64,000 nt of DNA from Terriglobia bacterium. Its GTDB lineage: Bacteria > Acidobacteriota > UBA6911. This document shows, piece after piece, positions 2,443 to 59,588 of this stretch. A program made the position numbers and the translations under genes. Position 1 is the first letter of the stretch. Each line of letters begins with the position of its first letter. Location: positions 264,822-328,821 of the forward strand of contig CAWGRQ010000024.1 of assembly GCA_963824985.1 (NCBI GenBank). Direction: 5' to 3'. The notes below the pieces were generated by a model. It was not told where the DNA came from, did no database searches, and saw only the letters and a program-made list of their open reading frames with translations.

Positions 2443-5076
2443 CTAGCGCACCAGCGCGTTGAACAGAAATTTATAGGTGCCGTGAGTCTGCGCCCGGTTC
2501 TGGGTCCGGAACCCGATGAGAATCACTTTGCCCTCCCCAAAGGCGATCGAGGCCATGGCCGTCTTGCCGGCAATGTATTTCTCGCCGTTCAGCCAGCCGC
2601 TCCGCTCGACATTGCGATCGGTATAGCGAACGATGATCTGGTTCTTTTCGTTGTGTTCGGTCGCCGCCACATCGAAAGCCGGGCTGTAGTGGAACAGCAC
2701 CAGGGCGTCTTCAGGCATCCCGTATGCCAGGGGATTTGTGGTGTCGACCTTCACACGCAAAGTCGATCCGGGACAGAAGAACTCCTTGGTGCTCAGGCCG
2801 GCCACCACGTTGCGGACCGGCAAGCCCAGCCGGGTGATCGCGAAATCGGTGGCCCCGCCGAGCGTGATCAGGGTGCCGCCCTTGGCCACAAAGTCCCTGA
2901 TCGCGTTCACGCCATCGTTGCCGATGCCGCTCCGGTACTCCGGCGGTGTTGAGTCGGGAACGCCGGCAAATCCGCCGCGGCCCCCTCCGCCCCCTCTGCC
3001 TCCGTCGGGCTCGCCGGTAATGGTGCCGGTGCTGTCGTCCGCAAAGATGAACACATCATAATTGGCGTTGAGATTGCCCTTCCTGATCTCGGCGTCATAG
3101 ACGCTCCTGAACGGGAACATGAACTGCCCTTCAAAAAGAAAGCGCGTCCAGCCCTCGTCCATGTTGCCGCCCCGATAGCGCTGATACATGCCGATCCGCA
3201 GCCGCTTCAGATCGTGGGCCTGCTTCGGCTCCGCCTTCAGCGGGCTGAAATCGACCCCGGTCTGCCTCGCAACATCCGCGACCAACGAATCGGGCGCCGA
3301 CGCCGCCACCAGGAAATCGCCCCGCCGCACGCCGTCTCCATCCCCATCGGCGCGCCGCATCGGCACGTTCCGGTCAAAGAGCAGGTTCATCGCCTTGAAA
3401 GCGTCGTTAAGCCGCCCATCGATAACGTAACCCGCAGGACCCTTGGCCACCTTGCCGGCCGGCTCGATCCGGGTGGCGACCTTCGCAAAATCGGCCTTCA
3501 GCGCCGCGCCCAACGGGTCGGCTTTGATGCCCATGTATTCGGCCAGCACGTCCTGGCCCATGTCATAGGGCCTGATCGGCGTCCCGTCCTGCTGCCGCGT
3601 CCACTCGTTGTCCGGGTAGTGCGTCTCACCCAGCAGGTATCGGATGAGTCCCATCTTGGGCTGTGCCAGCGCCACGTAGAAGGAGCCGGCGGGATAGATC
3701 ACACCGTCCGGCGTGGTGAAGCCTTTGGCGGACTGCATCACTTCGATGCCCTGGTTGAGCATTGCGTTGATCAACTTGTTGAGCGTGAGCGGATCGTTCT
3801 GGCTTGTCGAGATCGCATACGCCGCCGGATTGCCTTTGGCGCCCCGCTCCGTCTGACGGGTCGCCTTCAGATAAGTGTCCCAGACGATGGTTTCGGAATT
3901 GCGCGCCACGCAGTCCAACAGCGCCCAGGCCGCCACCTTCTGGCGCTCGACGATGTCCCGGAGACGCCACCACCCGCCCGGCCACGGATTCGGGAAGTTC
4001 ATCTGTTCCTGTGTCGGGTGCTCGAGGTTGCGCGCCGCGCTCGCGATCTGGCTCGGATCGATGTAGAGCGGAGTGGCCAGCCGCGCGCTCGCCGATTCGG
4101 TCAGCATCCCGGCGATGTTGTGAAACGGGGTGATCCAGTGAAACCCGAAATGGCCCCACCCCGAATACTGGCCGTCATTCATCACCCCCGACAGTCCGGC
4201 CTCTTCCGCCTTGTTCGCCATCTCGGCGCCGTACCACGCCGATTCCCGCCACACCAGAGGATCGGCCAGCGGACGAATCGGCTCCGCGTAGGGCGGGTAG
4301 TAGATCCGCGCGCCATAGCTGCCCATGTGGTGGAAGTCAAAATACGCCTGGGGCTTCCACTCCGTGAACAGCACCTGGCCCGCGTACTGCGACTCCTTCA
4401 TGTTCATCGTAAGGGCATCGCGGTTGTTATCGTGGCCGATATATTTGTTGTACAGCCACGGCGGTCCCGACCCTTCGTATTCGGTCCCGAGATACTTGTT
4501 GTAGAAGTCGGTCACCATGATCTCGCCGTCCGGATTGAAGGAGGGAATGAGCAGGAAGATGACGTTGTCGAGGATCCTCTGCGCCTCGGGATCGGTTCGC
4601 GTCAGGAGGTCGTAGGCGAGCTCGGGCGACATCTGAGCCCCGCCAATCTCGGTGGCGTGCATGCTCATCGTCATCGCAACCAGCGGTCTGCTCGCCGCCG
4701 CAATCTTCCTCGCCTCGGCTTCCGGAATCCCGCGCGGATCGCTGAGCCTGAGATTGTTCTGCCGCAGCGTTTCCAGGTTCTTCAGGTTTGCCGGCGACGT
4801 GAAAATGCACAGGAGGAAGGGATTGCCCATCTCGGTCGGGCCCATGTTGATTACCTTGAGCTTGCCGCCGCTCTCCTTCTCCAGAATCTGGTAGTACTCC
4901 ACCAGCTTATCCCAGCGCGCTATCTTCCGGTCGGCGCCCATCTGGAAGCCGAAGAATTTTTCAGGAGACGTGACCTGGCTCTGCGCCTGAACGTCTTGGG
5001 TCGGGAGCCCTGAACCGGCAAAAGCCAGCGCCAAAATAATGAGAAGCGCCCAGACGACTCTCATTTCCCTGTTCAT
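2443..5076 (-). CDS. M14-family zinc carboxypeptidase, secreted
   Basis: 877-aa ORF with signal peptide (MNREMRVVWALLIILALAFAG). M14 hallmarks: HATE (HxxE zinc site), FNPDGE, GHDNNRD. GGAGGG Shine-Dalgarno sits 7 nt upstream of the ATG at 5076. Confidence 0.75.
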   Translation of the reverse strand: MNREMRVVWALLIILALAFAGSGLPTQDVQAQSQVTSPEKFFGFQMGADRKIARWDKLVEYYQILEKESGGKLKVINMGPTEMGNPFLLCIFTSPANLKNLETLRQNNLRLSDPRGIPEAEARKIAAASRPLVAMTMSMHATEIGGAQMSPELAYDLLTRTDPEAQRILDNVIFLLIPSFNPDGEIMVTDFYNKYLGTEYEGSGPPWLYNKYIGHDNNRDALTMNMKESQYAGQVLFTEWKPQAYFDFHHMGSYGARIYYPPYAEPIRPLADPLVWRESAWYGAEMANKAEEAGLSGVMNDGQYSGWGHFGFHWITPFHNIAGMLTESASARLATPLYIDPSQIASAARNLEHPTQEQMNFPNPWPGGWWRLRDIVERQKVAAWALLDCVARNSETIVWDTYLKATRQTERGAKGNPAAYAISTSQNDPLTLNKLINAMLNQGIEVMQSAKGFTTPDGVIYPAGSFYVALAQPKMGLIRYLLGETHYPDNEWTRQQDGTPIRPYDMGQDVLAEYMGIKADPLGAALKADFAKVATRIEPAGKVAKGPAGYVIDGRLNDAFKAMNLLFDRNVPMRRADGDGDGVRRGDFLVAASAPDSLVADVARQTGVDFSPLKAEPKQAHDLKRLRIGMYQRYRGGNMDEGWTRFLFEGQFMFPFRSVYDAEIRKGNLNANYDVFIFADDSTGTITGEPDGGRGGGGGRGGFAGVPDSTPPEYRSGIGNDGVNAIRDFVAKGGTLITLGGATDFAITRLGLPVRNVVAGLSTKEFFCPGSTLRVKVDTTNPLAYGMPEDALVLFHYSPAFDVAATEHNEKNQIIVRYTDRNVERSGWLNGEKYIAGKTAMASIAFGEGKVILIGFRTQNRAQTHGTYKFLFNALVR

Positions 5077-8281: not shown

Positions 8282-9441
8282 ATGGGCGATCGGTTCGAAC
8301 AGCCGGTTTACCTGGACTACAACGCCACGACGCCGCATGCGCCCGAAGTTGTGGCGGCCATGAAGCCGTTTCTCGACGGTCACTTCGGGAATCCGTCCAG
8401 TGCCCACCGGTACGGCGCGACCACGCGCGCCGCGATAATCCAGGCGCGGTCCCAGGTTGCCGATCTTCTCAACTCGAAACCGGAAGAAATCGTGTTTACC
8501 AGCGGCGGGACGGAGTCCAACAATTACGCCCTTCGCGGAGCTGCCTTGGCCGGTGCGCAGCGGGGACGCCACATCATTACCAGCCTGATTGAGCATCCGG
8601 CGGTGACGGAGGTGTGCCGCCAATTAGAGGTCGAAGGCTTCGAAGTAACATGGCTTCCGGTGGATGGAGACGGGTTGGTGCGGGTTGCGGAGGCGGAGGC
8701 GGCGATGCGTCCGGACACCATCCTCATTACGCTCATGCATGCGAACAACGAAGTCGGCTCCATCCAGCCGATCCAGGCCGTGGCGGAGATCGCGCGGCGG
8801 CGCGGAATCATCTTTCACACCGACGCGGCACAGTCCATTGGCAAGATCCCCACCGACGTTCGCGAGCTTGGCGATTGATCTCCTTACTGTTGCCGGGCAC
8901 AAGCTCTACGCGCCCAAGGGAGTCGGCGCTCTCTATATCCGGGACGGGATCGCCCTTGATCCGCTTATGCGCGGGGCCGGTCAGGAGCAGGGGCGCAGAC
9001 CGGGGACCGAAAACGTTCTCGAGATTGTCGGGCTCGGCAAGGCTTGCGAAGTGGCCGGGCGTGACCTGGCAAAGAACATGGCGCGCATGCGGGAAACCCG
9101 CGATGAGTTGGAGCGGAGGGCTCCGCGAGATCATCGGGGACGTTCGAGTGAACGGGCACCCCGAGCAGCGCCTTCCCAACACTCTGAGTCTGAGCATTCG
9201 CGGCGTCAACGCCAACGAGCTTCTCACCGCCATCGAGCCCTATGTTGCCGCGTCAGCGGGAGCCGCCTGTCATTCCGGCGAGGTTCTGATCTCGCATGTT
9301 CTTTGCGCGATGGGAGTCCCAGAGGATTGGGCTCGCGGCACCCTCCGGCTCTCTACCGGGAGGCGCACGACCCGGGAGGAAGTGCGTGACGCCGTAAACG
9401 CGATCGCGGAGGCTGTACGCAGGCTTCGCCGCACGGAATAA
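8282..9441 (+). pseudogene. Cysteine desulfurase (IscS/NifS class V aminotransferase), interrupted by two frameshifts
   Basis: N-terminus MGDRFEQPVYLDYNATTP...TSGGTESNN...HANNEVGSIQP. Continues in another frame with IDLLTVAGHKLYAPKGVGALYIRDG (PLP-Lys motif), then a third frame with LREIIGDVRVNGHPEQRLPNTLSLSIRGV...SAGAACHSGE (active-site Cys). Shifts lie near 8870 and 9105. Confidence 0.65.
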
Positions 9442-30459: not shown

Positions 30460-33400
30460 ATGAAAATGTGTCAACGCGGGTCGCGGTGGGGCGGCTGGAA
30501 GCGGGTCGTCCGTATCGCATATGTTTCGGTTCTCTCGCTCATCCCATTCTCAATGTTGGCGTGGCAGGAAACCACGCGGCCGAGCCTGCCGCCTGGCGCG
30601 GCTGTGTCGCTGCCGTTCAGCGGACCGGGCTGGCAGGAAAAGGTTCTGACGTATGAGGGCTACGTCAGCTCCGCCGAAAGAGCTCGCCGATGCCGTGTTG
30701 GCGCCGCGGGAAGCCAACATCACACTCAGCAACCCGAGTCCCGACAAAAAGTGGTTCCTCGATGAGATCGGCGACGGTCCCACGCCGATGTCGATCTTCG
30801 GGCGACCCTTCGATGAGTTGGGCGGCGTGTTCATCGACTTCAAGGCCAACCGGCTGCGCTCGATGACGCTGCGCAATACGATAGGCATCCAGATTATCTT
30901 GGCCGCCGATGGATCAAAAAAGGTCATCGCAACGCCGCCGAATACCCGGGTGACCGGCGCGCGCTGGACGCCGGACGGCACGGGTGTCGCCTACATGTCG
31001 CTCGGCGACGACTCGACGCACGTTTGGATCACCGACATCGCGACCAACAAAGCGCGCCAGGTGACGAAGGCGTCGCTCGTGACGACCTCCGTGACGAATT
31101 TCGCTTTCGTGAACGGCGGCAAACAGATCGTCGCGACATTTGCGCCCGATGGCCGTAAGCCGCGGCCGGTGCCGCCCCCGGTGCCGCCTCGGGCCCGAGG
31201 TTCGCACGGCGCTCACCGGTGAGAAGGAGCGCGTGCGGACATTCCCGAGTCTGATGTCCACGCCCTACGACTTCCAACTGCTCGAGTGGCACGCGACGAC
31301 TCAGATCGCGATCGTCGACGTCGCCACCGGCGTCGCGACCAGGTTCGGCACGCCCGGCATGATCACGGCCGTCGACATGTCCCCGGACGGGAAATTCGCG
31401 TCGTGTGACGCGCATGACGAAGCCGTTCGCATACACGGTGCCCGCCAACAGTTTCGGATCGATCGAAGAATTGTGGGACAGCACGGGAAAGGCGCTCGCG
31501 AAGATCAATGAGCGGCCGATCAATCTTGGGGCGGTGCCCGACAACCTGGATCCGCTCGCGCCGCAGCCTGATCCCGCGGCGCAGGCGCCGGGAGGCGGCC
31601 GGGGCAACGCCGCCGCCGACAACGGCAAACGCGAGCTCGCGTGGCGGACCGACGGCCAGGGCATGAACTACCTGCAGCTTGAACCACTCCCACCTGGCGT
31701 CCGAAACGCGGCCGGGCGGGGAGGTCGCAACGCCGCTGCGCGGGACGGGGCCGGAACCGGAGGACGCGGCACAACCGCTCAGACCGGCAACCGCGGCGTA
31801 ACGGGCGCGCGCACAGCAACCCGCCGCGCCGCCGCGCAAAGACCGGCTCATGCAGTGGATGCCGCCGTTCAGCGACACCAGCATGAAGCTGCTCTACGAG
31901 AACCCGACGCGCATGACCGGCGTGCGCTTCTCGCCTGATGGACAGATTATTTTCTTCTACCGAGAACAACGCCACGGTGGCCGTGTACTCTGAGCGACAC
32001 CGGCGCAGAAGTACACGATCGTGCGCGGCGGCGGTGGAGCTCGTGGCGGCAACGCCGCTCCTGCTGATCCCGCGGTGACTCCGCCGGCCGATCCGACAGC
32101 CGCGCCACAGGGCCGAGGCGGGGCCGCTCCTAATCCGGGAGGCACGCTCGTCGGCGTCCGTGGCGCTGGCGCCGGCGGCGGTGGTGGCACCGCGGCGGTG
32201 GCGGCGGCGGCCGTGGCGGTGGCGGCGGCGCTGCGGGCCCGGTGCTGCTCTCGGACAGACGGCACGAGCGTGTTTCTGCAGGGCTCGACCGGCGGTGGCC
32301 GCGGAACGAACAATGCGCCGGCAACGCAATGCGCCGGCGAATCCGCCCGCGCGCCAATGCACCCGCGGCCAGTACGCCCGCGGCCGTCGCGTGGGTCGAC
32401 AAGGTCAATATCAAGACCGGCGAGAAAACCCGCGTCTTCCAGGGCGAGAACACGGACTTGGTCGAGCGCATCTCGATGATTCTCGATCCCGAAACCAAGC
32501 GATTCATCCTCACGAAGGAGAATGCAAAGACGCCGCCGCAGCAATTCCTGTACGAGAATGGCACGCGCAAGCAGCTCACGAACAACGAGGATCTGTTCCC
32601 GGACCTCACGAGGATGGTCGTGCAGCGTTTCACCGTGAAGCGGGCGGATGGGTTCATCTTCCGGACGACGGTCAGTTTGCCGAGCGACTACAAGCCCGGC
32701 AAGCGGCTGCCGGCGTTCTTCTGGTTCTATCCGGCGGAGTTCACTTCGCAGGAAGCTTACAACAGCGGACGCGGCGGTGACGCCGGCGCTACCGGCGGCA
32801 CCACGTTCCCGAATTTCGGGACGCTCTCGAAACAGTTCCTCGTCCGGTTGGGTTCGCGGTCGTCGAAAATGACGCACCCATCGTCGGTCCGCAGGGCCAG
32901 ATGAACAACAACTACGTGAACGATCTGCGGAATGACCTGTCGGCGACGATCGACGAGCTGGACAAGCGCGGACTGATCGACCGCGAGAAACTGGCGATTG
33001 GCGGGCACAGCTATGGCGCGTTCTCGACGGTGAATGCGATGGTCAACACGCCATTCTTCAAGGCCGGCATCGCCGGCGACGGCGCGTACAACCGGACTCT
33101 GACGCCGAATGGCTTCCAGAGCGAGCGCCGGGATCTGTGGGAAGCGCCGAACGTCTACCTCGACATGTCGCCGTTCCTCAGAGCCAACCAACTCACTGGC
33201 GCGTTGTTGATGTATCACGGCATGCACGATCAGAACGTCGGTACAGATCCGATCAACTCGCTGCGGCTGTTCCACGCGTTGAACGGCCTGGGCAAGATCA
33301 CGGCGCTCTACCGTTATCCGTTCGAGGATCACGGCCCGGCGGCGCGTGAGACCCTGCTCGACCTTTGGTCACGCTGGGCCGCGTGGCTCGACAAGTACGT

Positions 33401-33539
33401 TAAAAATCCGGAGCCGGAAGACCAAGCCCAAACCCACCTCAGGGCGCGGCGGCGGCGGACGGTAAACGGTTTTGGGCGGATCCAACTTCCGATCCGCCGC
33501 CTCCTCATGGGCGGGATCTCCACGATCCCGCCCATTTAA
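30460..33539 (+). pseudogene. S9-family (prolyl oligopeptidase/DPP-type) serine peptidase with TolB-like beta-propeller, disrupted by at least 4 frameshifts
   Basis: Pieces lie in frames of ORFs 30391, 30653, 31140, 31405, 32242 and 32901. N-terminal signal peptide, WD-like propeller (RWTPDGTGVAYMS), catalytic GGHSYGAF (GxSxG), LLMYHGMHDQNVG. Paralog of the intact gene at 49914-52097 and shares its Gly/Arg-rich insert. One shift is a G-run deletion at about 32840. Confidence 0.6.
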
Positions 33540-33551
33540 GCGAAAAGGGGG

Positions 33552-33593
33552 CAAAGCCTGGAAAGCCTGGACAAAGCCTGGAAATCCTGGACA
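33552..33593. repeat. Left terminus of IS/REPtron-like element: tandem (A)AAGCCTGGA units ending in 16-bp IR CCTGGAAATCCTGGAC (33577-33592)
   Basis: Tandem roughly 10-bp units caaagcctgg / aaagcctgga / aaatcctgga. The perfect reverse complement gtccaggatttccagg sits at 35091-35106. Confidence 0.6.
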
Positions 33594-33665
33594 CCCATTT
33601 TTTGTAATTTTTTCTTGGCACTTTCCATGAGTTCACCAGTTAGATAGTATTGAAAGAGGTGAACC

Positions 33666-34816
33666 ATGGCTTTGCCGCGCAGCAAATACGTCCAGGAAGG
33701 ACAAGAAGGGGTGTATCACTGCTTCAGCCGGTGCGTCCGCCGGGCTTTCCTGTACGGATTCGATCCGCTCACACGCCGGGACTTCTCCCACCGCAAAGCA
33801 TGGCTGGTAGACAGGTTGCGGCTATCTCGCGGCCATCTTCGCCATCGAAGTCTGTGCCTACGCCATTATGGAGAATCACTATCACACTATTCTGCGTACT
33901 CGCCCCGATATCGTCGCCCTGTGGTCCGATCGGGAAGTGGCAATCCGCTGGCTGACACTCTTCCCCCGACATCGCAACCTGAGCGGCACCCCAATTCCGC
34001 CTGCCGAGAAAGAAATCTGCGCTCTGGCGGATTGTCCGGAACGTATCGCAGAGCTGCGCCGACGCTTGTCGAGCCTGAGTTGGTTCATGGGCCGGCTGAA
34101 CGAATTCATCGCTCGGGCGGCAAACAAAGAGGATCGGGTCAAGGGCCGGTTCTGGGAATCGCGGTTCAAATGCCAGGCGCTGCTCGACGAAGCGGCCATC
34201 GCCGCATGCATGGTCTATGTGGACCTGAATCCGATCCGGGCCGGTACTGGCTGCAACTCCGGAGGAAAGCGACTTCACCAGCATCCAGGAACGGATCCGT
34301 GCCTGGCAGAAAGAGACGATGACGACAGCCTCCGCCTCCAGCGAGACGGCCCAAGACATGCAGTCTGGCTCGGTCAGTAAAGTTACGCAATACCGCGAAA
34401 TACGGCCGAAATTTCGAACCTCATTCCCGACCCCATTTCCGACTGCGGCGAATTCCCTTGATGCTACAGCCCATCCCGCCCGCTGGCTTTGTCCCATTCA
34501 ATCAGACTCCGAACGGCGCGGGATTCTGCAGATGACTGCAGCCGAGTATTTCGATCTGGTGGACAAGTCGGGACGGATGATGCGGTCGGACAAACGGGGA
34601 GCCATCGATGCCGATCTGGCGCCCATCCTGCTGCGGATCGGCGCCAATCCGGACGCGTGGCTTGATACCGTCACCCGCTTCGGTTCCAGGTTCCGTCTCG
34701 CTGCCGGGCTGCTTGCCAATCTGCGCAATTTTGCAGATCAGCTCGGCAGGCGCTGGCTCAAAGGCGCAGCAGCGGCTCGAGCCGCCTTCGCGTCATCGCC
34801 GCCGCAATTGGCCTGA
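33666..34816 (+). pseudogene. COG1943 / IS200-IS605-like Y1 (HUH) transposase-like gene (RAYT-like), two frameshifts
   Basis: HuH-type motif VCAYAIMENHYHTIL, then FWESRFKCQALLDEAAIAACMVYVDLNPIRAG. Reading shifts near 33830 and 34245 across the frames of ORFs 33666, 33868 and 34319. Low-GC promoter and gaaagaggtg SD upstream. Confidence 0.55.
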
Positions 34817-35090
34817 CCTCTTACGCGCCCAGCAGCCAATCCTCTGCAGACCCGATGCTATCTTCTGACCGCATCGATCCCTTCCAGCAGCATTTGGTAT
34901 TTTCCTACCCGTGACCGTCCTATTGCCCTGATTCCTGCCGACTTGTTTCACCCAACGGTCAGATTCGTCTCCTCCATCCCAGATCGGCGCTTCCCCACGG
35001 AAACTCAGATTCGGATTGGATACAAATGATGAATGCTGGGTGTTTAAGATTGTTGATTTATTTGAGATTTGCAAATTACGAATGGTGGGT

Positions 35091-35133
35091 GTCCAGGATT
35101 TCCAGGATTTTTCCAGGATTTTTCTTCCAGGAG
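35091..35133. repeat. Right terminus of IS/REPtron-like element: gtccaggatttccagg (35091-35106) plus tandem ttccaggattttt units
   Basis: Perfect 16-bp inverted partner of 33577-33592. The tandem copies are a mirror image of the left end. Confidence 0.6.
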
Positions 35134-35240
35134 GCTGCCCAGGATCGCCGGTCCCGGTCCGGAATGCCGATATCCATTTTAGCCAAGAGGTAAGCGCCGT
35201 CAGTCCCAATGCCCCGTTTTGGAATGAAGGGCATGCACTG

Positions 35241-36731
35241 TTACAGGATTTCGATCTGACGTTCCAATGTGCAGATACGATTGCTGATCGTGTCGGTGAT
35301 GCGCACCGCGATCCGGTATTTTCCCGGCGCCAGGCTGGAGAGCGGGATGGCTTTGCTGATGGCGATGCTGTGGCCCTCCGGGAACTGATGCTCCAATTCC
35401 GGGCCGACCGGGAACCTGGTGCCGTCCGGAGCTTCCAGCAGATAGGAAGTCTCCACATTCGGTTTGCCCGTCGTGGTGTCCAGATCGAGATCGTACACTT
35501 CCAGATAAAGTCCGAGGCTGTATTTGCGCGGATAGGCGGCCTTCAGGTTGGGAACCACCTTCAGAGGTCCAAGAACGAACTCTTCGCCACGGCTTTTTGG
35601 GGGGGCCAGCTGGATGACATCCGCGCAGATCAACGAACTAGTATTGAGCGCTCCCTCTACATAGGGTGGAATCCAAAAACTCGACTCCTGGGTGCCCATC
35701 CTTCCGGAATTCACATTCTTGACCAGCAGAACCAGCTTGTACCGCCCGGCCGGCAACGGAATGACCGTCTGGTGATACGTGCGTTGCTTCAAGAGATCCG
35801 GCAGGGTGAAATTCCCGGATGACGATTTGAAGCTGTCGTCGAGCTGATACACTATCTCCCCGCTGAGATTCGAAATAGCGGCGTATATCTGGATCTCCGA
35901 TTCGAAGAAACCATCTTTTCCCAAATACATGAGCTGGTCGTTGGGAACGGTTACGGTGAGGGGAACCGCGTACAGATCCGGGGTCATCCGGATAAAGGCA
36001 GTGCTCGATTCGAAGGAGAGAGTGCTATAGGTGACCTTTACGCGGACATCCTCTCTTAACTGCGGAAATTGGAGCACCGGCGGGGCCTGCAGCTTGGACC
36101 ACACGGTGAGGCGTTCGAATGGCATCTCCTTGGCACGGGGGGTCACGCGCTGCAGCGGCTGCTCGCCGCGAGCCCAGTAAAATACGTCCTTCTTATTGGC
36201 GTCCGTTTCGAGGACGTAGAGACCCGTTCCGGAGCGATCGACAAACTCGATCGTGATGTCCTGCCCGATACCCGGGATAGAATCGTATTCCCAGGTCTCA
36301 AAGGCATAGGTGGTGATGGTATCGCCGCCCATGTTGGCCGGCTTCGTGTAGCGGCCTCCCATGGGGCGCGCGTCGCGGCGGTTCGGCGGGCCGTAAAGGA
36401 TATAGATGCGCCCGCGATCACTTTTCCATCCCGAGATTCCGGCATGAAAGTACTCATTGGCGTAAGCCACGCGCCGCGAGACCTCTTCACGGAATGCGCC
36501 CGGCCGACCCATTCCTGCGTCTCGCCGTCTCCAGAAATCTTCCATGAAACGCTCCCGTTCCTCTTCGGTCGTGAGGCGCTGGTACACCTGGCGCTCTTGC
36601 TCGGTGATGAAGTACTGAACCTCAGTCTGAAGCCACTCCCTCGCCTTTTCGGCCGGGGCCGGCTTCTGCTGTGCGGCTGCAGAGAGAAGGAGTGAGACGA
36701 GGATGATCGCGGAAGCGGTGAATCGGAAAAA
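35241..36731 (-). CDS. GWxTD-domain secreted protein (Acidobacteria-type)
   Basis: Signal peptide MFFRFTASAIILVSLLLSAAAQQ. GWxTD motif GISGWKSDRGRIYILYGPP. Roughly 500 aa. Confidence 0.7.
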   Translation of the reverse strand, partial: FFRFTASAIILVSLLLSAAAQQKPAPAEKAREWLQTEVQYFITEQERQVYQRLTTEEERERFMEDFWRRRDAGMGRPGAFREEVSRRVAYANEYFHAGISGWKSDRGRIYILYGPPNRRDARPMGGRYTKPANMGGDTITTYAFETWEYDSIPGIGQDITIEFVDRSGTGLYVLETDANKKDVFYWARGEQPLQRVTPRAKEMPFERLTVWSKLQAPPVLQFPQLREDVRVKVTYSTLSFESSTAFIRMTPDLYAVPLTVTVPNDQLMYLGKDGFFESEIQIYAAISNLSGEIVYQLDDSFKSSSGNFTLPDLLKQRTYHQTVIPLPAGRYKLVLLVKNVNSGRMGTQESSFWIPPYVEGALNTSSLICADVIQLAPPKSRGEEFVLGPLKVVPNLKAAYPRKYSLGLYLEVYDLDLDTTTGKPNVETSYLLEAPDGTRFPVGPELEHQFPEGHSIAISKAIPLSSLAPGKYRIAVRITDTISNRICTLERQIEIL

Positions 36732-37067
36732 CATCGAAAATCTCTGCCCTGACCCGTGCTTCGGAGCACTCAATCTTGCCGGTACCGCTCTCGAGGACCG
36801 ACACATGACATCAGAGCCTGCTCCGAAAATAGGCTCTGCACTCACCGACAATCGGGGTCGGCATCGGAATCGGGGTCGCTATCGATATCGAAACCGGGAC
36901 CGACCCCGATTCCGATAGCGATCCCGACGGCATCTCCCCTGCTGCCAGTCTTTTTCATGCGTCACCGGGTGCGCCACGGCGCATGAGGAGCTGCTGCTCC
37001 AAGGAAAGTGTGGCGCGGGGGCCTGTTCCCCCGCGCCACTGCGTCTGAGCATAGTACAGCAATTCCG

Positions 37068-58900: not shown

Positions 58901-59588
58901 GACAGGATCGGCGTTCGCATACGCCATTCCACCCGGCGGCGCGTTCGTGTTCCAGACCGACGGCTCTTCCCCGATCGCGCGCGCCGGTTCGATGATGCTG
59001 ACACCGGATGCGAACACCTCGAGCCCCGCCGGTTCTGCAATGATCGGACTCACGCAGCGCGGGATCCGGGTGACCGAATCGGGCGTGCCCGCCGCGACGC
59101 CCACGACGCACGCGCGCATTTACATCGATACGTCCGGGGGACACAACACCGGCCTGGCGCTCGCCGTTGCCGGCACCACAGGATCCATGATTGCAGTCGA
59201 GGCTTTCCAGGCCGACGGCGTCACCGCCGCAGGCGACGGCATGCATGTCCTCAGGCTCGATCCCCACGGGCACGCGGCGGCATTCGCCGACCAGCTGATC
59301 TCAGGACTGCCGCCGCGTTTCTCCGGCGTGCTGGACATCTACTCGCCGTATCTGCCGTTCGTCGCGCTGACAGTGCGCTCCATGATCAACTCGAGAAGGG
59401 ACTTCCTGCTGACGACATTCCCGGTGGCCGACCTGACCCAACCGGCGCCGGCGCCGGTCATCTTCCCGCAGATTGCCGACGGGGGCGGTTATCGGACGGA
59501 ATTCATCCTTTTAAGCGCAGGCACGGCATCGCGCACGACGATAAGGTTCCACAACCAGACGGGCGCCCCACTGGCGGTCGGCAAATAG
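55955..59588 (+). pseudogene. Large secreted S8 (subtilisin) peptidase with I9 propeptide, C-terminal FG-GAP/VCBS propeller and three beta-sandwich repeats; two frameshifts and one in-frame TAG
   Basis: Signal peptide plus I9 (55955-56491). G-run -1 shift near 56467. S8 motifs VIDTGCDVTHPDL, HGTHVAGT, GTSMAAPHVAG. In-frame TAG at 57685-57687 inside an FG-GAP repeat (DIDRDG*AEIPVG). FG-GAP VDLDGDGRREMIV, MDIDGDGRLEIAW. Shift near 58900. Confidence 0.6.

Follow-up and report, generated by a model that had tools for sequence, protein, structure and literature searches.

The stretch of DNA analysed here, referred to as the window, comprises 64,000 nucleotides of contig CAWGRQ010000024.1 from a Terriglobia bacterium (Acidobacteriota; assembly GCA_963824985.1, positions 264,822 to 328,821 of the forward strand). 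It carries a transposon-like unit which extends over 33553-35134 when degenerate repeats at its ends are included, or over 1.57 kb when taken as 33553-35123. The sole gene of the unit (33666-34816, + strand) is a decayed gene for a Y1 transposase of the HUH class. The unit is very probably a decayed copy of an insertion sequence (IS) whose transposase belongs to subclass 2.3 of the Y1 superfamily, related to the REP (repetitive extragenic palindromic)-associated tyrosine transposases (RAYTs), and whose ends consist of a core plus a tip. The features recognised in the unit are the following.

33553-33582, + strand: left reiterated-tip array of three 10-nt units, AAAGCCTGGA, AAGCCTGGAC and AAAGCCTGGA, each joining a 7-nt tip to the initial 3-4 nt of the core.
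33582-33597, + strand: left terminus, with tip AAATCCT (33582-33588) and core GGACACCCA (33589-33597); the similarity between the two ends reaches inward to about 33610.
33666-34816, + strand: tnpA pseudogene, very probably TnpA_Y1 subclass 2.3, 382 aa once repaired.
34817-35037, + strand: 3' non-coding segment of the element; a conserved motif in its interior, TTTCACCCAA (about 34956-34965), shows complementarity to the terminus.
35038-35045, - strand: degenerate right terminus on the inner side, GGGTGTTT; its homologue in the closest relatives (L036, P0002 lineage) is the one right terminus that these possess.
35086-35101, - strand: outer right terminus, with core TGGGTGTCC (35086-35094) and tip AGGATTT (35095-35101), the reverse complement of AAATCCT.
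35101-35134, - strand: right reiterated-tip array, with TCCAGGATTTTT at 35101-35112 and 35112-35123 and a degenerate CTTCCAGGAGG at 35124-35134.

The unit is bounded by an inverted repeat with arms of 49 nt (33562-33610 and 35073-35121) which are 86% complementary. At the core of this repeat lies a perfect 16-mer, CCTGGAAATCCTGGAC, present at 33577-33592 (+) and 35091-35106 (-). The initial annotation of the locus had described perfect 16-bp inverted repeats bracketing a segment of about 1.5 kb, and both copies are indeed exact at these positions. It had further proposed a search for recurrences of the 16-mer; exact occurrences were found at the two ends only. When up to two mismatches are allowed, the window contains four matches against 0.08 expected by chance, three of them at the unit ends and the fourth at 59196-59211 (2 mismatches). 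The mirrored tandem repeats which had been seen to run outward from the ends are likewise present, as three units on the left and two on the right followed by a degenerate remainder reaching about 35134. The units are 10-12 nt each and consist of the tip (AAAGCCT or AAATCCT) plus GGA, repeated. The core occurs in the window at the two unit ends only, and a second, degenerate right terminus sits inside the outer one. Among 191 left/right pairs the window copy alone has 8-nt flanks which are identical in inverted orientation, and this identity accounts for its perfect 16-mer. Such a 16-mer is therefore atypical of the family, in which only the 9-nt core is general.

The gene reads through frames 0, 1 and 2 in turn. 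The two frameshifts reported for it earlier were traced to two 1-nt insertions, a C at 33822 and an A at 34246. Deletion of C33822 and A34246 yields a 382-aa protein with up to 85% identity to intact 382-aa metagenome proteins over 100% of the length (more than 5,855 matches). The alignment of the repaired protein with intact homologues is free of gaps, and both mended junctions agree with the consensus. Neither frameshift lies in a homopolymer and the gene has no other defects, from which it follows that the inactivation of the window copy was recent. Many long intact open reading frames (ORFs) are present in the window, the longest of 1,424 aa, and therefore the assembly is not generally full of indels. 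The HUH codons are located at 33877-33885 and the codon of the catalytic Tyr (YVDLNP) at 34216-34218.

The assignment of this gene to the HUH/Y1 transposases of the COG1943 class, with a RAYT-like character, is borne out by motif signatures, by an NCBIfam match and by a fold match to the structure 4ER8. The repaired protein contains the motifs ENHYHTIL, GRFWESRF and CMVYVDLNPIRAG, which correspond to the NHYH, WE and YVDLNP signatures. Residues H71, H73, W163, E164 and Y184-N188 are invariant or near-invariant among 62 sequences. In profile searches the repaired protein matched NCBIfam REP_Tyr_transpos with E=8e-12, under the curated cut-off. A match to Pfam Y1_Tnp (PF01797), which had been suggested as a check, was obtained at 15.8 bits, under the cut-off of 23, and taken literally this outcome is borderline. 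The intact homologue P0001 gave no match in Pfam, and sequence and profile searches of the PDB gave no match for the transposase. An AlphaFold (AF2) model was generated for the intact relative P0001 from a 62-sequence alignment (mean predicted local distance difference test, pLDDT, 70). In this model core residues 10-220 are confident, a linker (221-270) is disordered and the C-terminal domain (about 285-375) is helical. Strands are modelled at 60-67 and 71-78, and helices at 80-134 precede the helix 137-155, matching an insertion of about 55 aa between beta3 and alphaC. A TS tail motif is present as DFTSIQ (residues 202-207). The top match of the model in Foldseek is the E. coli RAYT-REP complex 4ER8 (E=4.5e-4, probability 1.0, template modelling score, TM, 0.61 on target), followed by ISDra2, IS200 and IS608 TnpA, and all top matches are Y1 transposases. 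Membership in the Y1 superfamily is established by the NCBIfam match, the full set of subclass 2.3 motif signatures and the fold search.

The Y1 superfamily was split into 12 subclasses by Quentin, Siguier, Chandler and Fichant in 2018 (PMC6006769). The row for subclass 2.3 in their Table 1 lists NHYH, WE, YVDLNP, a TS tail motif, a distal subclass-specific domain and the longest proteins. The subclass has core insertions of 10 aa and 55 aa, 3.9 copies per genome and the entry "REP: no"; its members came mainly from Chromatiales and Alteromonadales and had a median length of 325 aa, and DNA ends were not defined for it (PMC6006769). The family described here shows the same motifs, the insertion of about 55 aa together with the TS motif and a long C-terminal domain, several copies per genome and no REP-like hairpins. 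The protein signatures thus fit those of TnpA_Y1 subclass 2.3 point by point, including the distal C-terminal domain and the multi-copy state. The window copy differs from the subclass as published in coming from a large Acidobacteriota branch, in which the proteins are of 382 aa and the disordered linker is longer. A search with a gammaproteobacterial seed revealed a very large branch in Sedimenticola, Thiohalomonas and Ectothiorhodospiraceae, and a search of 1.84 billion representatives placed the size of the family at 1,270 clusters (E<=1e-30).

For the comparison of copies, 65 genomic loci were retrieved, mostly from Acidobacteriota metagenome-assembled genomes (MAGs), and the ends were compared over about 90 related loci. 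Single Acidobacteriota MAGs carry 4-7 copies. Siblings within one genome are 96-99.6% identical across 1.37-1.59 kb; the homology between them ends at the termini and their flanks are unrelated. Identical proteins are encoded on several contigs with differing flanks, and two contigs begin exactly at the element tip. Decayed and partial copies are common among the retrieved loci. The near-identical siblings at different sites confirm that the unit is a copy of a mobile element, as had been proposed. The element is IS-like, very widespread and experimentally unstudied, and the window copy is an ordinary dead one.

Target-site duplication is absent, the direct identity of 8-nt flanks being 2.03/8 within a locus and 1.99/8 between loci. 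An IS of the DDE type was considered and rejected, since no direct target-site duplication flanks the inverted repeats. Insertion at the centre of a palindromic target was also rejected, since the left and right flanks are identical in the window copy alone, and no palindromic target beyond the shared flank consensus was found.

Several loci show individual arrangements. The downstream flank of L078 is the upstream flank of L074, so that in that organism two copies stand head-to-tail about 90 nt apart. In L070 and L071 (P0010 lineage) a 253-aa ORF and, after it, a DDE_Tnp_ISAZ013 gene take the place of the usual 3' part and right terminus, and no right core is present within 520 nt. In L080 (1699-1710), and also in L081, the insertion abuts the 5' end of a gene for an XRE-type helix-turn-helix (HTH) protein; the start which the gene caller assigned to the L080 gene is a GTG lying within the right terminus. 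Left and right cores paired without a gene, 20-40 nt apart, were seen in L013 (4771), L064 (369) and L049 (3296). These may be deletion derivatives, or derivatives resembling miniature inverted-repeat transposable elements (MITEs).

Nearly every copy has the sequence GGACACCCA(y)T(w)TTT at each of its ends, the two ends being inverted relative to each other, and a single end often holds it 2-4 times. Distant relatives keep the core, as AGACACCC in Kangiellaceae and as TGACACCCACCACTA, in a perfect 15-nt inverted repeat, in a finished replicon of Pseudoalteromonas piscicida. The latter copy (L085; strain 2515, NZ_CP074588.1, 756135-758503) has reiterated tips at both ends. It comes from a cultured strain with a finished genome, there are three matching places in the record, and it would be a convenient experimental model.

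Outside the core, siblings at independent sites share positions -1 to -7 and vary at -8. The mean identity of their 8-nt flanks is 6.5/8 on the left and 5.5/8 on the right. In the group of P0002, P0010 and L036, for example, the left heptamer is AGAACTT and the right one AAAGCCT. As the heptamer is shared by siblings and divergence sets in at -8, the mobile unit would end with a 7-nt tip rich in A. Divergence in this tip is about ten times as fast as in the body of the element. Among CAVXIH siblings, which are 97-99% identical, the tip follows the pattern G[CAT]AA[CT][AC]CT and differs at 2-4 of 8 positions. Immediately 5' of the core the dinucleotide CT stands at 34% of ends, GT at 23% and TT at 13%, against a background of 5-7%. 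According to our first reading, the unit outside the core was random flanking DNA stuttered at insertion. This reading was dropped, as siblings with identical proteins show that the heptamer is inherited.

A different organisation of the ends is seen in Pseudomonadales OY760134 (L057 and L058, 4105-4135), where two inverted cores, GGACACCCACCGC gcatg GCGGTGGGTGTCC, form a perfect hairpin at the right end. Here the right end has no outside tip and the left end has a 13-nt tip. The ends in this branch are REP-like and asymmetric. No conserved hairpin was found at the ends in the Acidobacteriota branch.

Reiteration of the tip is a widespread property of these ends. At least one extra exact copy of the terminus's own 6-nt flank lies within 45 nt at 75 of 171 termini (44%), compared with 2.2% for the same duplication at 8,573 control GGA sites. 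The iterated terminus to which the initial annotation drew attention is hence both real and unusual. The same annotation regarded the inverted repeats as built from 10-bp units; the units are there, and the idea that they are a fixed building block does not hold. Judged from the sequences, the 10-bp units are copy-specific reiterations of the element tip.

The density of duplications is highest at the junction. In the reiterated units usually 2-3 nt of the core are copied, and the spacing is 9-11 nt. Exact tandem tracts stop at +3 of the core, GGA^CACCC, in 34 cases and at +2 in 14. Tandem duplications of a second class start at +3 to +5, an example being GGA-CACCCATTTATTC-CACCCATTTATTC in L012. 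Longer reiterations, which run from the tip inward, range from 23 to 310 nt and include 38 nt in L071, about 48 nt at the right end of the window copy, 84 nt per unit in L006 and, as the largest seen, 310 nt in L017. In that locus (2836-3165) the tandem duplication takes in the tip ggaatgct, the left end in full and some 52 codons from the start of the gene. L006 contains at least ten right-terminus cores in about 500 nt (4370-4890), including three 84-nt tandem units, and each core carries its own reiterated tip (gaaacct or gaaatct). To the extent that the searched literature shows, the ends of core plus tip and the junction stutter with a fixed breakpoint are newly defined; nothing relevant on the terminus motif, nor any later work on TIRYTs or subclass 2.3, came up in literature searches.

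A possible origin of the reiterations can be sought in the chemistry of the enzyme. HUH enzymes cut single strands; the 3'-OH which is left can prime synthesis, and the 5'-phosphotyrosine can be resolved by a 3'-OH (PMC8266576). The E. coli TnpA_REP cuts at CT adjoining its recognition element (PMC8266576). At the ends described here two positions recur per end, 10 nt apart, namely -7, where the inherited sequence ends, and +3 (GGA^CACCC). The transposase would bind the core at both ends and nick near it, at the outer edge of the tip, at GGA^C or at both. Polymerase would then extend the free 3'-OH briefly by strand-displacement synthesis, and rejoining of the tyrosine-linked 5' end would leave the copied stretch duplicated. 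Alternatively, a 10-nt staggered break which is filled in and resealed would give the same product. If an outer unit served as the end in a later transposition, the array would become part of the element, and the inner termini would therefore each carry their own fossil tip. We infer that the reiterations are scars of abortive or repeated end processing by the transposase. The specific version with nicking, extension and rejoining is put forward tentatively, as a possibility which we rate below even. It is a more doubtful proposition that subclass 2.3 moves a duplex inverted-repeat element by a path other than peel-and-paste, with ends processed at two positions 10 nt apart (the outer tip edge and GGA^CACCC) and with the reiterations as a by-product. 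If this were true, the reiterations would allow a new mechanism of transposition to be read from the sequence itself, in a family of more than 1,000 50%-identity clusters.

Several observations weigh against this account. Reiteration is missing at 56% of termini, and replication slippage at a protein roadblock could yield reiterations without a nick. The strongly differing tips of the CAVXIH siblings are not easily explained by a purely element-borne tip. To our knowledge, the Y1 HUH transposases with an understood mechanism (IS608, ISDra2 and E. coli RAYT) all recognise single-stranded hairpins, and the ends in the Acidobacteriota branch have no conserved hairpin. The C-terminal domain, which might bind the core, had no significant structural neighbour when modelled alone, the best being homeodomain- or HTH-like at E>3. 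Finally, an empty site, a circle junction or an excision footprint was sought across the retrieved loci and in database scans, and none was found; the pathway, the cleavage positions and the origin of the tip are what we infer from the ends themselves. Among the searches for an empty site, exact look-ups with the GWxTD neighbour of the unit (two start codons) and with the 100%-identical P0121 found nothing on record, and the 72-75% orthologues that were examined differ in downstream synteny. A metagenome scan with a 22-mer from the flank of L080 gave 0 matches and did not recover the source contig itself. No relative was found in a protein-level metagenome scan with the neighbour of L088, and no filled/empty pair in an all-against-all search of the loci.

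A different account of the tip takes the 7-nt unit outside the core as a lineage-specific target, comparable to TTAC of IS608 and TTGAT of ISDra2, which is found via an internal guide, with the true end of the element at T^GGAC or GGA^C. We regard it as rather unlikely. It has a precedent in the IS200/IS605 elements, which choose cleavage and target sites by guide base pairing and whose conserved left flank lies outside the IS (PMC8266576). The enrichment of CT, GT and TT 5' of the core recalls the CT cleavage site of TnpA_REP, the duplication breakpoints gather at GGA^C, and the tips of CAVXIH siblings vary at 2-4 of 8 positions yet keep their pattern, as tolerant target matching would give. 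However, in the P0002 lineage the different heptamers AGAACTT and AAAGCCT recur at three or more independent sites, so that a specific target of about 14-20 nt would be needed if both were target-derived. The left and right flanks of one copy are also no more alike than those of unrelated copies. GGA^C as the true element end found no support: in 578 kb there was no excess of X-GGA-TCC-X' footprints, these empty-site-like sequences being not above chance, and there were no abutted junctions of right end to left end. Inspection by eye in few lineages (L001, L036 and P0002) showed nothing obvious in the way of guide-like complementarity or covariation between tip and subterminal sequence. In a mixed version of this account, the left tip may come from the target and the right tip from the element.

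The reiterated units could, instead of being scars of end processing, be functional iteron-like accessory sites for the transposase, spaced one helical turn apart and kept by selection. Short direct repeats likewise adjoin the nick sites of other HUH systems, as the iterons of geminiviruses and the Rep-binding element of adeno-associated virus (AAV). The spacing mode of 9-11 nt is close to one helical turn, units are found at either end, in every branch and in different phyla, and each unit retains T-GG(A), the start of the core. Against this, merely 2-3 nt of the core are kept, too few for specific binding, and unit length forms a continuum up to 310 nt. The units are exact copies inside an array, yet arrays differ between siblings whose proteins are 97-100% identical, and 56% of termini have no units, including those of L088, an intact copy found in several samples. 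Such a function appears quite improbable to us.

The initial annotation compared the locus with a REPtron, in which a domesticated single-copy RAYT gene is accompanied by inverted REPs that are dispersed as non-autonomous REP/REPIN elements. The protein is a relative of the class 2 (Y---NP) RAYTs with the E. coli RAYT as its best structural match, termini are clustered at some loci (at least ten in L006), one branch has the REP-like hairpin of two cores, and a few gene-less pairs of left and right ends exist. The gene is, however, multi-copy, with near-identical siblings and many decayed or partial copies, and it behaves as an IS and not as a domesticated single-copy gene. The flanking repeats lack a palindrome of 20-50 nt preceded by GTAG, or a GTAG foot, and consist of non-palindromic GGACACCCA cores, which in the window occur at the two ends only. 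Quentin et al. also saw no REP-like structures in subclass 2.3 (PMC6006769). The REPtron interpretation is therefore very improbable and was abandoned. That the tandem repeats are sequencing or assembly artefacts of MAGs or chance low complexity is barely credible, for although many loci come from MAGs, long-read assemblies included, the arrays are common to SPAdes short-read contigs, long-read MAGs, JGI metagenome contigs and a finished isolate replicon and are therefore not artefacts, they are found at 44% of termini against 2.2% of control sites, and the window is rich in long intact ORFs of up to 1,424 aa.

In the 3' non-coding segment of the window unit, the motif TTTCACCCAA (about 34956-34965) is complementary to TGGGTG of the right terminus, about 110 nt downstream, and is found at the same position in 9 of 12 relatives. 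This pairing is the sole one which RNAalifold proposes for the 3' part, and it shows no compensatory changes. The motif may be a further, inverted half-site. No Rfam family was found in the segment, no covariation-supported structure was detected in the 3' non-coding region of the window copy and its relatives, and a promoter and terminator scan gave nothing above shuffled sequence.

As had been noted, the unit lies between a peptidase gene of the S9 family and a GWxTD gene. The upstream ORF (32901-33539) matches Peptidase_S9 (E=4e-21) as a C-terminal fragment, and the downstream gene (35241-36734, - strand) matches GWxTD_dom. Over 30653-33539 the ORFs of the + strand are broken across three frames, and the last fragment alone (32901-33539) matches Peptidase_S9. 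This region is probably a heavily decayed peptidase gene beside the dead IS copy. The neighbours are thus as first described, and the pseudogene status of the peptidase gene is drawn from ORF fragmentation alone, the peptidase at L066 not being orthologous. The dead window copy is passively placed between the fragmented S9 peptidase gene and the GWxTD gene. A perfect 12-bp stem, ATGGGCGGGATC n5 GATCCCGCCCAT (33507-33535), precedes the left array by 17 nt. This stem probably acts as terminator for the S9 peptidase gene, in which case the element stands just beyond the hairpin.

Subclass 2.3, which in 2018 was a protein group without an identifiable DNA partner (PMC6006769), now has defined ends. 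The inverted 9-nt core, conserved from Acidobacteriota to Gammaproteobacteria, together with the 7-nt tip makes this large family experimentally approachable. The junction stutter is a reproducible signature which predicts the site of action of the enzyme, and the prediction can be checked by oligonucleotide cleavage. These elements break assemblies and carry no annotation beyond "transposase", "RayT" or "hypothetical protein"; automatic annotation of the ends could now be set up.

Among known systems, the rolling-circle HUH elements (IS91/ISCR, Helitrons and rolling-circle replication (RCR) plasmids) show variable termination, which leads to duplications or captures associated with their ends. 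We know of no short tip reiteration of the present sort in them. They belong to other HUH clades (Y2, or Rep with helicase) and have no inverted repeats of this type. The likeness is a mechanistic analogy only, in that a 3'-OH at a nick primes strand-displacement synthesis and the tyrosine-linked 5' end is rejoined (for the HUH chemistry, see PMC8266576).

With the IS200/IS605 elements (IS608, ISDra2) the present family shares the Y1 HUH fold, the lack of a target-site duplication and a short conserved stretch immediately next to the left end. In contrast, those elements have a Y---Q motif where YVDLNP is found here, subterminal hairpins, asymmetric ends without inverted repeats, a transposase of about 150 aa and often a tnpB gene. 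With its YVDLNP motif, its inverted repeats and the lack of a conserved hairpin, the unit does not belong to this group.

The E. coli RAYT (4ER8; PMC3479197, PMC8266576) resembles the present transposase in the structure of its catalytic core, in the class 2 Y---NP motif and in the use of a short motif adjoining the cleavage site. It cuts at CT 5' or 3' of the REP, and here CT, GT or TT precedes the core. As in a REPtron, recognition elements flank the gene in inverted orientation. However, the RAYT is of about 165 aa, as compared to 382 aa with two extra domains in our family, and it reads single-stranded hairpins tagged with GTAG, whereas the ends described here have neither hairpin nor GTAG. 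Canonical RAYTs are moreover typically single-copy and without evidence of mobility (PMC8266576).

The closest architectural concept is the TIRtron. The terms TIRYT and TIRtron were coined by Di Nocera, De Gregorio and Rocco in 2013 for RAYT-like genes which are flanked by inverted repeats instead of REPs (PMC3733652). The window unit has the same organisation, with a RAYT-like tyrosine-transposase gene between terminal inverted repeats (TIRs) that are unrelated to REPs. An Acidobacteria-specific group and the occasional clustering of TIR copies were noted in that study (PMC3733652). On the other hand, most TIRYTs are of subclass 2.1 with DnaA_C/HTH C-terminal domains (PMC6006769), and the TIR motif GGGGWSAS of some TIRYTs does not fit the core GGGTGTCC/GGACACCC. 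The gene family and the general idea of the TIRtron are thus already known, whereas tip reiteration and IS-like sibling copies were not reported for TIRtrons (PMC3733652).

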